Assembly: GCF_030013595.1 (NCBI RefSeq)
Contig: NZ_CP122768.1
Source: Escherichia coli
GTDB lineage: Bacteria > Pseudomonadota > Gammaproteobacteria > Enterobacterales > Enterobacteriaceae
Reading direction: 5' to 3' (one strand)
DNA length: 64,000 bases
A program made the position numbers. Numbering within the stretch: position 1 is the first letter of the stretch; the number at the start of each line of letters is the position of its first letter. Below are positions 40,601 through 46,600 of this stretch, piece by piece.

Positions 40601-43600
40601 CAGGCAATCTTTGGTGCCATTCCCGCGCCTAAGCCCAGCGACGTGGCAGCCAGACTACAATATTTGAGAAAGCTGCGCCGGGTAACGCCCTGACGCCGCA
40701 TGGCCTGGTAAAATGTTTCCTCGTTATTCATATCGCACGTCTCTTCTCCTTGCGACACCGGCAGGACACCGGGCGCTTATGGTCGGCAAGCGACGTCCCT
40801 GTAGCAAGGCAAACCATCGCTTCACGTGAGATGCTGAAAACGAAAGCTCATCCTTCTGCACTGGCGCACGTCGCCAGAAAGTATTGTTAATAAAGCGTAG
40901 TGAAACTTTTGCACAAAACAATACAAACTGTATGGATTTATCTTTTAGCGATAAAAATGGACCTATTTTTCTTTTTGCCGGGCAGTGGGGATGTTTAGCC
41001 GGTTGCTAAACGAGTAAAAGAGAAGGAATTCATGGTGATGAAATGATCAATCTGCTGTTATTTCACGCTATCAATGCACTTTTGTCTGTTTTTCAGGCAA
41101 ACAAACAAATTAGGGGTTTACACGCCGCATCGGGATGTTTATAGTGCGCGTCATTCCGGAAGTGTGGCCGAGCGGTTGAAGGCACCGGTCTTGAAAACCG
41201 GCGACCCGAAAGGGTTCCAGAGTTCGAATCTCTGCGCTTCCGCCAAATAATCAAGGGGTTACCAAATGGTAACCCCTTTGCTTTTTGGGCTCTTGGTATA
41301 AACTTGGTATACCAATTGGTATATTTTCTGCCAAAAAATTCCTAAAATCCCCTCCAGCACAAACAATCACTTGCTCATTCATACTTTATCAAGAAAATAT
41401 CCTTGCAAGTTATGTTGTTTCTTTCTGCGTCCCGACAGGGTGTCATGGTTCCCCACTTCTCTCGGGATGGACACTTAACGGACGAGAAATTTTCAGGTGT
41501 CATTCAGACGCGCTTCGGCCCCGGATTGGCGAAGCGCGCTTTTTTTCTCAGATTATTTCGTTTTGCCTGAGTGTTGAATAACGCCACTACAGTTATATAA
41601 GCTGGAAATCATTCAATACTCGCACTATCGAAAGTTCACCAGCCAACCGCAGCACGTACTGCATACGTCGTGTCTGCGGTTTTTCTTTTTCACTTACATT
41701 GTGTCTGGTTCTTCCGGCCACACAATATCCGGTGCTACTGATGTATCAACACGGTTCAGCAACACCCGATACTTTTTCCAGGCTTCCAGCAACGAGTTTT
41801 CTTCCTCCGTTGCGATCTCCAGATCTACAGCATCCTGAAGTGGCGCAATATGCTCACTGGCTACCTGCATCAGGCTGTTTTTTGTTTCTTCCGCCTCCCG
41901 GATCCGGAACAGTTTTTCTGCTTCTGCATCTTTCACCCAGGCTGTGCCGTTCCACTTCTGAAACTCCCCTTCCGGCGATAACCAGGTAACATTTTCCGGT
42001 AACGGACCGAGTTCAGAAATAAATAACGCGTCCCCTGACGCTACGTCATAAACCGTTTTACCCCGATGGTCTTCAACGAGATGCCACGATGTCTCATCAC
42101 TGTTGAAAACAGCCACGAAGCCTGCCGGAATATCTGGCGTTGCAATATCGGTACTGTTTGCTGGCAGACCTGTATGAGGTGGAATGTATGCATCACCTTC
42201 ACCAATAAATTCATTAGTTCCGGCCAGCAGATTATAAATTTTTATGGTCCGTGCTTGTTCACTCATTCTGAATGCCATTATGCAAGCCTCACAATATAGT
42301 TAAATGCGATGTTTTTGACGGTGTTTTCCGCGTTACCAGCAGCGTTAACGGTGATGGTGTGTCCATGTGAGCCAATCGCAACAGAGTGCGTATGAGCACC
42401 AATACCGACAGTATGTGCGTGAGCACCTGCAGATGCAGCTGTGCCGCTGACACTATGAGTGTGCGCTCCTGCAGCACTTGTATTCACACTGGCCGCAGAC
42501 ACTACCTTATGTACTGACCCATTTTGTGACCACTGGCTGACTGCTGATGCGCCTGTGACACTATGAGTATGGTTTCCGGCACTTGCGGCTGTACCGCTCA
42601 CACTGTGCGTATGCGCCCCGGTGTTATTCGTGGATTTAGTGCCGTAATCAAACGACGATGTGGTTTTCGTCCCCAAATCCGTACTGGATGCGCTGGCGCT
42701 GTGGGTGTGCGATTTAATGCCGTCCTGTTCCTGAGACAATACGGCCCGACCACTGGCAGGTTTGCCCTTAATCGTCCAGCCACGCATATCAGGGATCACG
42801 CCTGACGGATAAGCGGCTGCAAGTTTCGGGTATGCAGATTTGTCAAAAGTCTGCCCCTGCATCAGGGCATAACCAGACGGAACGGTATCTGATGGCCACG
42901 GGATTGGTGCACCGACTGGGTAGCTTTCTGGTGGAAGATTTTTCGAGGTATAAACTTCTGCCCAGTCTTCCTCAAAACCATAACCGTCTCTTGAAGAACG
43001 GTAGAACAGACCACCATTTCTGTAATGCGCCTTCATCTGCAGGGTCCGGCAACTTCCGACTCCGGTATAGAAGTTAACCAGAATATAGCTGTTGCCTGTC
43101 CGGGTGACATTGTATGCACCAGATTTAGCATTCCACGGAACGCCTCCCTCTGACTCTGCGTGCACACCAGACGATCCAAGAGCAAAAGCAGAGACATCTG
43201 CAGCGGACAGCCTGATGTCTGATTTCAATGCCTTACCATTCACCTTACGACCAGATGGAACCCGGTCATTTGCATTATCATTCACCGCTTTCACCGCCAT
43301 TGGTGTTGCCGCCAGCGATTCACTGTCACTGTCCGTGGCACTGCTGAGCTGTACCACCCCCTTTCTCGTCGTGCTCGCATCCTCTAGCGCCACGGCAGAT
43401 GCAATATCCTCTGCCCGTTTTGCTGCTGTCTCGGCACGCGTTGCTGCAGATTCCGACGTACTTTTGCTCTGAGCTGCCGCTGTCGCACTACCAGCTGCCT
43501 CTGTCGCCTTCGTGGATGCCGTCGTGGCACTGACCTTCGCCTCTGACGCCTGTCTTACCGCCTCATCTTTTGAAGCAGACGCCGATGATGCTGATGACGC

Positions 43601-46600
43601 CGCCGAACTGGCGGACGATGCGGCTGCCGTTTCTGAGGCTCCTGCGCGGGTTTCCGACGCTTTCGCATTCGTCTCAGATGTCTTCGCTGCGGAAGCAGAA
43701 CTCGCAGCTGCAGTGGCCTGTTCAGTGGCTTCGCCAGCCTTCGTTGTGGCTGTTGAAGCGGACGATGCAGCGCTTTCTGCCGATTTTCCGGCGGCAGCGG
43801 CACTGGCTACAGCCTCCCCTGCCTTCACTGATGCCTCACGGGCCGATGATGCAGCCGCGGTTTCTGAGCCTGCCGCAGCTGAGGCACTCTGTCCCGCTGC
43901 CGTTTCAGAAGACTTAGCGTTTGTCTCAGACGTCTTTGCCGCCTTCGCGGAATTTCCTGCCGCCGTTGCCGAGGAGGCTGCACTACTGGCACTCGAGGCT
44001 GCGCTCGTTTCTGATGATTTTGCCGCCTCTTTTGAAGCCGACGCATCCCTGGCTGAGGAGGCAGCTTCTGACGCTTTCGTGGTCGCGGTGGATGCAGAGG
44101 TGGCTGCTGATTGTTGTGACGCTGCAGCATTCGTTTCAGACGTTTTCGCGGCACCGGCACTGGTGGCCGCCGCGCTTTTTGAGGACTCTGCAGCGGCAGC
44201 ACTTTTTGAGGCTTCAGTGGCCTTTGTTGATGCCGTTCCTGCGCTGGAAGACGCTGACTGAGCCGACGAAGCGGCCTGTCCGGCTGACGTGCTGGCTGCA
44301 CGTGCTGAATCTGCAGCATCAGTCGCATGGGTTGCCGCCTCACGGGCAGATGTGCTGGCATCACTGGCTGACTTCTTCGCGGCTGCCGTGTTCTGTGCCA
44401 CCACGGACGCGTTACGCGCCACCTCTTCCACCATCAGTTCAAAACGGCGCAGTGCCTCCGGACGGGCATCATCCTCCGTCATGGCACCGAGAAAATCATT
44501 CAGCGTACCGGGTTGAGAATCTTCATACACGGTGATGGTCCCGGCATGCGAAGGCGGAAAACCTTCAACCAGCAGGGTGACACTGTACTGACCGTACTCA
44601 ACGTCCATGCTGTAACGCCCGGCTTCATCCGGATTTTCTGAGGCCAGCGTGTTCACCACCACCGTGGTACTGTTACGTTTTGCTTTCAGCTGGATTGTGC
44701 AGTTCTGTACCGGTTTTCCTGTGCCGTCTTTCAGTACACCTGAAATCTTTACTGCCATATTCACCCCACAAAAAAGCCCGCCTGAACCGGCGGGCTGTCA
44801 TAACACTGTGTTACCTGGCTAATCAGAATTTATAACCGACACCCACGATGAAACCGTCAGTGCGCCAGTCACCACTGCCGGAGCCTTCATAAGCGACATC
44901 AATGGCCACGGATTCGGTCGGGTTAAACTGCACGCCAGCCCCCCACGCCAGAGACGTGTTGCTGTGGCGACCGTCATCACTTCCGGTCAGCACGTCGTGC
45001 GTTTTCCCCTTGTTATCAGTTACGCGGAGATAATCCCCGGAAAAAGTCGACACACGGCTGTAAGCCACACCCGCCATCGCATACGCGCTTAACCATTCAT
45101 TCACGCGCACAGACGGCCCCGCCATCACGCTGAACCAGCGGTTACGCACGGAATCTTCATGCCAGCGGGTATCGCTGTAACGGGTCAGCTGGCGATTCTT
45201 GTCTCCTGCATAGCTGAATGACGTCACCAGCCCCAGTGTGTCCGTAAACTCATAACGGTATTTCACGTTAATCCCGTTCAGATCATCGCTGCCGGGAACG
45301 TTCGTCGAGGTATAAAGATAGCCCGCGCTCAGCGTGGACTGATGTTCAGACGCCCATGCAGGCGCACAGGATGCGGCCAGACAAATGGCTGCGGACAAAA
45401 TGGCGGCATAAAGTTTACGCATAATTACCTCTCGCTTTTCTGCAATAAAAAAGGCACCATTTCTGGTGCCCTTATCTGGGTTATAAATATTTCAACGGAT
45501 ACTGATACCGGAAGCCGCTTTTTTGGTCACTATCACCGTACAGTCTGTGATGTTACCTGCACCCTGATTGCCTTTCTGGAAAATCCTGAACTCCAGGGTG
45601 ACGTTCCCACCACCACTCGGCATATCAATAACCGCGCTGTAACTCCCGGGAACTGCCCCTCTGGTTTCTCTGGATGCGATTAAGACACCGTTTTTGCGAA
45701 CTTCAAAACCATAACCCGTGTACCTTGTACCTCCCGGGTTATTACCGCTCCCCGGATTGTCATACGCCACACCGTTAAAAATAATGGGCGGAATAATGAT
45801 TTGACGGTCAAAGTTATGATCATCGCTGATGGTGACGGTAACCGTCCCGTCGGGTGTTTCCGTGTTCCCCCACGTACCAGCCCTTTTCGGGAATGGTCTG
45901 GATACCGCTTTAACGAAGTCCCCCCTGACCTGGTTCGCCTCCAGCATGCCCTTAATCGTACAGTTCTCATTTACCGTGACGTTGTTGAGCGTTCCGGCGT
46001 TCGCGTTCACGTTACCGCTGATATCCGCATTTCTCGCCGTCAGCCGACCGTCAGGTGTCAGGGAAAATGCCGGTGGATATCCACCGCTGGTAATGGTGGG
46101 AGCCGTCAGATATTTCAGGAACACTTCATTCATGAATATCTGATCACCCTGACCAACAAACATCGGCTTTGTGTTGCCATTTGCAGGATTAATCATCGCA
46201 ATCCTGTCTGCCGCCAGCAGCACCTGACTCTGCATGCCGTCGGGGGTGTTCTCAATACCGGCACCGATACCCGCGATATAAAGGCGTCCGTCCTGCATCT
46301 GCTGCAGCTTCACAGCCCACATGCTGTTCAGGTTATTACTTGTATCAACCTGAACCTGCTGTATCTGCTGAATTGCTGCACTCTGGTCTTCCAGTTTCTT
46401 ATTGACGGTCTGTGTGATTTCATTGCTGACATCCGTAATGGACGTCCTGATTTCAGCCAGGTCAGGCGCAAGCTGACCGTTATCAATCTGCGTCCACAGC
46501 TCCTGAGCCAGATGGGTTTTCCCTATCTCGCCTTTGAAAAAATCCAGGTAACCTTCCGCATCATCGCTCGCCCGACCGACGGCCTCCACGAATGCCGATT

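Follow-up and report, generated by a model that had tools for sequence, protein, structure and literature searches.

Results

Organization of the stf locus

The window, i.e., the whole 64,000-nucleotide stretch of Escherichia coli DNA that was analyzed, contains one end of a prophage beside a tRNA-Ser gene (serT) and hyaA, and its own end falls within the prophage. The tail genes are in the order J-lom-stf-tfa as in lambda, and the same layout is found in lambda and five reference loci. The locus comprises the following features.

39613-40758, minus strand: hyaA, next after serT
41158..41245, plus strand: tRNA-Ser (tga, serT), prophage/chromosome boundary
41694..42278, minus strand: tfa, tail fibre assembly chaperone, 194 aa (PF02413, E 1.8e-44)
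42278..44758, minus strand: stf coding sequence, 826 aa plus TAA stop, counted from the likely ATG
44775..44796, minus strand: terminator-like hairpin between lom and stf
44823..45422, minus strand: lom (Ail/Lom outer-membrane protein), upstream neighbour of stf
45492..48989, minus strand: J, central tail fibre/host specificity protein, 1,165 aa

Mechanical ORF calling gives 828 open codons at 42278..44764 on the minus strand, with a GTG start at 44764, and neither stops nor frameshifts occur across 2.5 kb of stf, which bears out the single uninterrupted 828-codon frame described in the initial annotation. Translation probably begins at the ATG at 44758 (MAVKISG...), which would give a protein of 826 aa. 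This codon is preceded by GGGGTGA, and the start annotations of lambda and of prophages agree with it, as does the solved lambda StfN chain; an MNM... start is annotated instead in two reference records, L006 and PhiR29_1. The gene had been contrasted with a frameshifted stf in laboratory lambda, and the contrast holds: stf is annotated as orf-401 plus orf-314 in J02459 and as one 774-aa gene in KT232076, a lambda record from K-12 CV601. The tfa gene is intact, its ATG overlaps the stf stop codon (TAATG), and Tfa shares 93% identity with its lambda counterpart.

In profile searches, Stf matched PF08400, PF07484 and PF03335 as well as tail-fibre PHROG families, and the NCBIfam models gave no match to either Stf or Tfa. 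The exact 826-aa and 828-aa forms are absent from a collection of 15 billion proteins. Two complete genomes carry an annotated, colinear 826-aa gene whose product is 98% identical to the window Stf. Among the best-listed matches, the whole gene was colinear in only 2 of 40 complete genomes and in 0 of 30 phage records.

Modular architecture of Stf

From the N to the C terminus, the protein can be divided into the following modules, all encoded on the minus strand.

44357..44758, minus strand: N-terminal tail-attachment domain, aa 1-134 (PF08400, E 8.4e-72, full profile coverage)
43379..44413, minus strand: Ala/Ser/Thr-rich rod, aa 116-460, ~49 uninterrupted heptads S-A-x-x-A-x-x (heptad periodicity)
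43193..43378, minus strand: conserved fibre motif followed by a short hinge/linker, aa 461-522 (match of aa 432-504 to Mu S, 5yvq/8ju3)
42929..43192, minus strand: distal domain, aa 523-610, with a homologue in phage Mu tail fibre S/S' (8ju3 residues 323-415)
42281..42928, minus strand: T4 gp37-type receptor-binding tip with collar (PF07484), HxH needle and head, aa 611-826 (2XGF)

Residues 1-94 can be aligned over their full length with the lambda StfN collar domain, whose structure is known (9e7m/9mgh, E 1.8e-51). Further along the protein, Ala, Ser and Thr together make up 66-80% of windows over residues 151-450, an enrichment that spans ~345 residues (116-460) and matches the central ~350-residue Ala/Ser/Thr-rich repeat noted at the outset. 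The region is not, however, featureless low-complexity sequence. One heptad register is held over 345 aa, with 94% Ala at register position 4, and the Ala power reaches 10.0 at period 3.5 and 3.6 at period 7, against a shuffle maximum of 2.2. This strict heptad pattern is predicted to form a trimeric coiled coil with an alanine core. A proximal coiled-coil rod is known from Ur-lambda Stf, and the homologous region of lambda has been modelled as a coiled coil that fits the cryo-ET density (PMC12617516). At the DNA level, repeat spacings in the rod are mostly multiples of 21 nt, and Tandem Repeats Finder, run on 42200-44800, returned no tandem array and one 26-nt match only. The rod repeats at the protein level, in heptads, over degenerate DNA that forms no tandem array.

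The same composition leaves open frames elsewhere in the region. Across 43.0-44.5 kb there are ORFs of 249, 204, 126 and 115 aa on the plus strand and one of 179 aa in an alternative frame of the minus strand. Stop codons number 2/26/2 on the plus strand and 0/4/14 on the minus strand of the 1,036-nt rod region, compared with 9-23 in the non-coding frames of the distal part, which attributes these ORFs to the rod composition. Four of them were tested against Pfam and none reached threshold. Thus, the opposite-strand ORFs were rightly dismissed as spurious products of the repeat composition; a real gene on that strand, where the lambda record annotates orf206b, was rejected on the stop statistics and the lack of family matches.

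Rod length and its variation

The rod anchors are 338 aa apart in 106 of 124 homologues and reference fibres, or in 113 of the 124 if a variant end anchor is allowed, and the rod is colinear in 3,597 of 5,426 complete E. coli genomes. Relative to lambda, the window rod is longer by 105 aa (15 heptads), and only in this comparison are the Ala/Ser repeats expanded, as the initial annotation had it. Because its length is the modal one among E. coli prophage homologues, sequence comparison identifies lambda as the short variant and the window rod as one of usual length for E. coli prophage fibres. Repeat-number polymorphism among related prophages, on which the earlier reading depended, does exist: an allele at the same serT locus lacks 22 heptads, lambda lacks 15 and P0025 has 15 more. 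The large rod indels comprise whole heptads (15, 15 and 22).

The serT-locus allele, WP_112024827.1, encodes 672 aa and is present in E. coli HCP5S3_I2 and 15 other contigs. It differs from the window stf by one mismatch and one deletion and is otherwise identical. The missing block was mapped by allele comparison.

43576..44037, minus strand: 462-nt block (154 aa, 22 heptads) missing from the HCP5S3_I2 stf allele

The block is bounded by the repeat GCTTCAAAAGA (ASASK[E/D]EA), within which its exact ends are ambiguous. Between HCP5S3_I2 and the window, the tfa, serT and hyaA flanks are 99.99% identical over 10.9 kb, whereas the upstream J and lom genes are only ~97% identical.

It is conceivable, and we propose it tentatively, that register-preserving block indels of 15 or 22 heptads, arising by recombination between short internal repeats, recurrently tune the reach of lambdoid side fibres, e.g., past O-antigen or capsule. 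The window stf would then be the full-length parent of the 22-heptad-deleted allele at the serT locus, and its distal architecture lacking the mid-fibre domain would represent a functional "minimal" fibre.

The 66-80% content of Ala, Ser and Thr, together with the several indel alleles, might also be taken to mean that the centre of the protein is disordered, a low-complexity spacer free to drift in length by slippage. We consider this hardly credible. A single register runs through the ~49 heptads with Ala almost fixed at one core position, the corresponding part of lambda fits density as a coiled coil, and length is constant in most homologues and changes in large steps of whole heptads; with no DNA tandem array, moreover, slippage has no substrate.

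The linker and the missing mid-fibre domain

Beyond the rod, the linker joins two motif copies between which longer relatives carry a domain of 210-290 aa, and the stretch at aa 523-616 matches Mu S (8ju3, E 4.7e-22). Among the homologues compared, total length ranges from 672 to 1,238 aa, mostly owing to distal parts of 378 to 712 aa. Judging from the alignments, most of the length differences among relatives correspond to the mid-fibre domain, which is absent from the window stf, and the short architecture without this domain is uncommon.

The closest long relatives are StfR-type E. coli prophage fibres of 1,117-1,120 aa (Rac prophage stfR, phage 2H10). They share with the window protein the N-terminal domain, a rod of identical length, the Mu-S-like domain, the tip and the head-loop allele, with 91-92% identity over the shared parts, but contain ~291 aa of mid-fibre sequence that the window stf lacks. 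Homologues of 1,116-1,238 aa have an extra PF21446 domain, also missing from the window protein, and the window junction segment (aa ~481-540) is divergent from the StfR type.

Loss of these ~291 aa, the rarity of the architecture among complete genomes and best-listed phage records, and the presence of truncated stf pseudogenes at the same locus in other strains (e.g., ETEC4073) might indicate that stf here derives by deletion from a longer StfR-type gene (~1,117 aa) and has decayed to a non-functional state in a defective prophage, its frame open by chance. We find this very improbable. The missing segment sits exactly between the two module-boundary motif copies, so that the frame and the flanking domains are whole, and the 2.5-kb gene has kept its frame beside an intact, overlapping tfa. 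The junction segment shares no more than 60-72% DNA identity with the long forms, and on this divergence a simple, recent loss from an StfR-type gene was rejected. The architecture without the mid-fibre domain is also seen in the separate protein clusters P0001 and P0007, of which the second has 28 members and another head loop.

A gp37-type tip with a variable head loop

Over residues 611-826, the protein is 69.6% identical to the crystallized T4 gp37 tip (2XGF, E 8.9e-89), and the tip collar matches PF07484 (E 6.5e-12). The similarity to 2XGF settles the fold of the tip as gp37-type. Monomer prediction of aa 601-826 with AlphaFold2, from an 11-row alignment, was uninformative (mean pLDDT 35, pTM 0.17); by homology, the tip would be an interwoven metal-bound trimer. 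Two features stand out in this module.

42359..42709, minus strand: seven His-x-His motifs, aa 684-800 (sequence scan and 2XGF alignment)
42464..42562, minus strand: hypervariable head loop between HxH 3 and HxH 4, aa 733-765 (allele comparison)

In 826-aa numbering, the HxH motifs are at H684/686, 716/718, 730/732, 766/768, 780/782, 789/791 and 798/800, and one 15-residue motif of this region is present twice. The resemblance to T4 fibre tips proposed initially proved closer than suggested, with ~70% identity to the crystallized gp37 tip and all seven HxH motifs aligned with those of gp37. Their 14 His residues are all invariant in an 11-sequence alignment of the window, lambda, T4 and prophage proteins. 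The T4 gp37 trimer holds iron ions in its core (PMC6957217, PMC11705849), seven in all, and has tip residues that contact the receptor (PMC6957217). By analogy, the trimer is predicted to contain seven octahedral metal (iron) sites, built by the seven motifs.

Sequence variation among relatives is concentrated in the loop between HxH 3 and HxH 4, where at least five unrelated allele families occur on an otherwise conserved needle. In the segment aligned with gp37 929-968, which contains the loop, 11 of 40 aligned positions are identical (27.5%), compared with ~80% identity on either side. As the corresponding loop of T4 is the receptor-contacting tip (PMC6957217), the head loop is a predicted receptor-contact surface. 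The 27.5% identity of the head weakens the case for the same receptor as T4 and leaves that for the same fold unaffected; most of the T4-like head contact residues (OmpC/LPS glucose) are not conserved, and no receptor data turned up in a literature search on phages carrying this head-loop allele.

These data bear on the initial proposal that copy-number changes of the Ala/Ser and HxH repeats are the main route to a different fibre length or specificity. Part of it stands, since rod alleles differ by -22, -15 and +15 heptads and lambda has eight HxH motifs instead of seven. As the main route it is nonetheless unlikely: HxH number is near-fixed, with seven in nearly every one of the 124 sequences, rod length is constant in most homologues, and the differences lie in the unrelated head-loop alleles and in the mid-fibre domains that account for most of the 672-1,238-aa range.

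Comparison with lambda, T4 and Mu fibres

Ur-lambda Stf (774 aa, UniProt P03764, N-terminal PDB 9e7m/9mgh), for which a domain map and OmpC binding have been reported (PMC12617516), is 76% identical to the window Stf overall. Both are encoded in the J-lom-stf-tfa position, match over aa 1-94 with few substitutions, and have a heptad Ala/Ser rod, an "LAATPxAVK" motif and a gp37-type tip with the same 11-residue ending. The hinge and distal segment of Ur-lambda Stf are replaced in the window protein by the short linker and the Mu-S-like domain, and the window head loop is unrelated in sequence to that of Ur-lambda and 12 aa shorter.

The relationship to T4 gp37 is limited to the last 216 aa of the window protein, where collar, needle and C terminus are ~80% identical; both genes have an adjacent chaperone gene. 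Phage Mu S/S' (8ju3, 5yvq) is homologous in the motif region (aa 432-504) and the distal domain (aa 523-616), with ~170 aa between the two segments compared with 18 in the window protein, and is otherwise unrelated.

Discussion

Taken together, the sequence data argue, with a probability of about 0.9, that the window carries an intact stf of a lambda-like prophage ending beside serT/hyaA, which would be cotranslationally coupled to tfa and encode a trimeric fibre composed of a collar, an Ala-core rod, a linker, a Mu-S-like domain and a gp37-type tip. Trimer formation, metal binding, chaperone dependence and a role in adsorption are proposed by analogy with lambda Stf and T4 gp37.

By homology, each fibre would contain three chains. 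Residues 1-94 would form collar domains for docking on the tail tip, following the solved Ur-lambda structure, and aa ~102-498 a long alpha-helical coiled-coil rod with Ala at core positions a and d. The short linker, standing in for the mid-fibre domain of longer relatives, would lead to the Mu-S-like domain (aa 523-610) and then to the gp37-type collar, six-stranded needle and head (aa 611-826). In the needle, each HxH motif, contributed by three chains, would coordinate one metal ion, and the loop between HxH 3 and 4 would make up the receptor-contacting head. Tfa probably assists trimerization of the tip. Side fibres of the lambda family are trimeric on the virion and speed adsorption (PMC12617516, PMC11338833), and the fibre described here may do so by binding a surface receptor reversibly before J engages its own receptor.

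The window stf adds a new allele to a well-known family and is built from known modules that are also used in engineering lambda-based delivery particles (PMC11338833). The gene is correctly annotated and probably works as a host-range determinant of its prophage; the E. coli lineage concerned is found in pig isolates, and the practical value is small. The comparison corrects a lambda-centred view, in that the lambda rod is a short variant and not the norm, and the otherwise identical 826- and 672-aa alleles constitute a natural pair for the effect of rod length on adsorption.

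Location and extent of stf

The side tail fibre gene stf belongs to a lambdoid prophage and lies at its right end, adjoining serT, in the gene order J (central tail fibre, 1165 aa versus 1132 aa in lambda), lom, stf, tfa, tRNA-Ser(tga), and hyaA. The exact J protein was found in only three contigs of the protein collection searched.

42278-44758, minus strand: stf, most likely 826 codons
41158-41245: tRNA-Ser(tga), serT
41253-41278: bidirectional terminator-like hairpin with an 11-bp stem, directly past the tRNA-Ser gene

Counted from a mechanical GTG, the minus-strand frame (42278..44764) has 828 open codons. 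An ATG at 44758, two codons past this GTG, has GGGGTGA just before it and coincides with the annotated start in lambda Stf and most prophage homologues, as well as with residue 1 of the solved lambda StfN chain; therefore, stf most likely comprises 826 codons. The lom/stf gap holds a terminator-like hairpin, and the tfa start overlaps the stf stop (TAATG), as in lambda. The frameshift that the initial annotation gave for laboratory lambda is documented, with orf-401 and orf-314 in J02459 (PMC12617516); in the lambda record from K-12 CV601, stf is a single 774-aa gene.

The prophage ends approximately 450 nt from serT, beside hyaA (41158-41694; 8459-9579 in L007, the serT locus of E. coli HCP5S3_I2), and many pig-derived E. 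coli (ETEC, O139:H1) have a prophage end with tfa at the same site. At the serT locus of strain ETEC4073 (L008, 6579-8318), a 5′-truncated stf pseudogene abuts a holin gene, a prophage remnant in which only the fibre tip and tfa were kept. Between the window and HCP5S3_I2, identity is 99.99% from mid-stf to appC and only approximately 97% for lom, J, and the rest of the region upstream (44758-50861), and stf or lom may be close to a recombination boundary.

A heptad rod with nearly stop-free overlapping frames

The center of Stf had been described as low complexity, which is not to say featureless. Residues ~116-460 contain 66 to 80% Ala, Ser, and Thr, arranged in approximately 49 consecutive S-A-x-x-A-x-x heptads in one register, with Ser at 72% of positions 0, Ala at 70% of positions 1, and Ala at 94% of positions 4. 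Fourier power for Ala was 10.0 at period 3.5 and 3.6 at period 7.0, far above the maximum of 2.2 in 200 shuffles. In the trimeric side fibre of Ur-lambda, the homologous residues 102-393 make up the proximal coiled coil (PMC12617516). At the DNA level, direct repeats in stf have spacings that are mostly multiples of 21 nt; Tandem Repeats Finder reported no tandem array in the gene.

Opposite-strand ORFs in this region had been regarded as spurious, and stop counts agree. In 1036 nt of rod, the three frames contain 2, 26, and 2 stops on the opposite strand and 0, 4, and 14 on the same strand; thus two of the frames on the opposite strand and one on the same strand are nearly stop-free because of the codon make-up (GCN, TCN, and ACN), which accounts for overlapping ORFs of 115 to 249 aa. 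None of the four such ORFs tested reached threshold in a Pfam search. The 'orf206b' annotated opposite stf within the lambda Ala/Ser rod region (J02459, 20147-20767; 2004-2624 in L001) is an ORF of the same composition-driven kind.

Rod length varies, with large indels of whole heptads

The initial annotation called the rod expanded, which holds relative to lambda only: the window rod exceeds that of Ur-lambda by 105 aa, exactly 15 heptads. Among 124 sequences (120 homologue clusters and four references), 106 have the conserved anchors EEVARNA and AEDIAxAVALEDA spaced 338 aa apart, and acceptance of a variant end anchor adds seven more with this spacing. Of 5426 complete E. coli genomes, 3597, among them K-12 with its stfR, have a colinear match to 80% or more of a 1111-nt rod probe, and the matched span was the same in most of a spread sample of 60 records. 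The window rod is therefore of the usual length, and lambda has a contracted form.

The predicted repeat-number polymorphism among related prophages does exist in the rod. The hyaA-serT-tfa junction of HCP5S3_I2 is identical to that of the window over 1.7 kb and 99.99% identical over 10.9 kb, and the stf gene at this locus (L007, 9579-11597) encodes 672 aa. Apart from a single mismatch, the only difference from the window gene is a clean deletion of 462 nt (154 aa, 22 heptads), which falls between a pair of GCTTCAAAAGA repeats encoding ASASK(E/D)EA. The 672-aa allele is present on 16 contigs in the protein collection and is thus no single-assembly artefact. Further variants, each in single clusters, have rods longer by 105 aa (cluster P0025) or shorter by 30, 1, 2, or 3 aa. 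All three large rod indels preserve the heptad register.

The closest database protein, the singleton P0001 (796 aa), is 99% identical where the two align, but its rod is 30 aa shorter, not a whole number of heptads, which would shift the register; this gap may reflect either a genuine stutter or misassembly of one contig. P0001 and the window Stf have in common a rod patch (aa ~298-325; ~43780-43870) whose DNA is only 76 to 79% identical to that of each of the five reference genes compared. HCP5S3_I2 carries a second stf paralogue in another prophage, an 826-aa gene beside potB (L002, 6007-8487) with 97.8% DNA identity to the window gene; both ends are identical, and gene nt 630-1170 are only 79 to 97% identical, a pattern suggestive of patchy recombination within the rod. 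In some E. coli fibre genes, similarity to the rod probe is confined to its first ~520 nt, beyond which the sequences diverge; one such gene has an S74 peptidase domain in its annotation. The rod itself may therefore be a crossover point for exchange of whole distal modules.

A distal half without the insert of long relatives

A motif common to Mu, P2, and lambda fibres follows the rod and matches Mu S in PDB entries 5yvq and 8ju3; residues 523-616 match a domain of Mu S/S′ (8ju3; E value for the stretch, 4.7e-22). Relatives of 1035 to 1238 aa carry a 210- to 290-aa insert past this motif, with a copy of another, short motif on each side of the insert (...NGKALxxDIxLxxxD(I/V)G... and ...FDGSxDIxLTxxxxxAFA...), whereas the window gene has one fused copy and no insert. 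A fresh deletion from the long form is ruled out, as the junction DNA is only 60 to 72% identical to long forms; judged from sequence, the distal half is instead a distinct module arrangement, found also in P0001 and P0007 (28 members).

A T4 gp37-type tip with a variable loop

The proposed likeness of the C-terminal HxH repeats to T4 fibre tips is borne out: residues 611-826 match the gp37 receptor-binding tip crystal structure (2XGF) with an E value of 8.9e-89. Overall, 69.6% of residues are identical; the value is approximately 80% for the collar and descending needle, 78% for the ascending needle, and 27.5% for the head. Both proteins have seven HxH motifs that align one-to-one, and all 14 His residues are invariant in an alignment including T4 and lambda. 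The seven iron atoms along the T4 needle are each held by an HxH triplet to which all three chains contribute, and gp37 residues 929-953, between HxH 3 and 4, bind LPS and OmpC (PMC6957217; PMC11705849). The tip modelled as a monomer with AlphaFold2 gave a pLDDT of 35 and was uninformative, and NCBIfam gave no matches.

Variation in HxH number had been proposed as a route to specificity change. Among 122 homologous tips, however, the count is almost always 7 (8 in lambda), and the HxH 3-4 loop sequences form five or more allele families with no relation to one another, the window allele being present in ~15 tips. Differences that could alter specificity thus lie in the loop, rather than in HxH number. 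Known receptors of related fibres include OmpC for lambda and possibly the O16 O-antigen (PMC11990801), and LPS core Gal II for Gifsy-1 (PMC12312913).

Proposed function and novelty

The fibre parts are assigned by homology, from which we infer function. A Stf trimer would dock on the tail tip via its N-terminal collar domains, with the rod projecting ~15 nm further than that of lambda (at ~0.15 nm per helical residue) and a bend at the short linker beyond it. The Mu S-like domain and iron-stapled gp37-type needle would be presented past the linker, and reversible binding of the needle head to a surface receptor would raise the adsorption rate ahead of J binding its own receptor. Folding of the tip would be chaperoned by Tfa, which is 93% identical to lambda Tfa.

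Every Stf module has a described, mostly solved counterpart, and the gene is a member of a well-known family. Its exact allele is absent from the databases searched (15-billion-protein collection), and the short, insert-less architecture is uncommon. The sole mildly interesting point is the occurrence of 826-aa and 672-aa forms as a natural allele pair at one locus.
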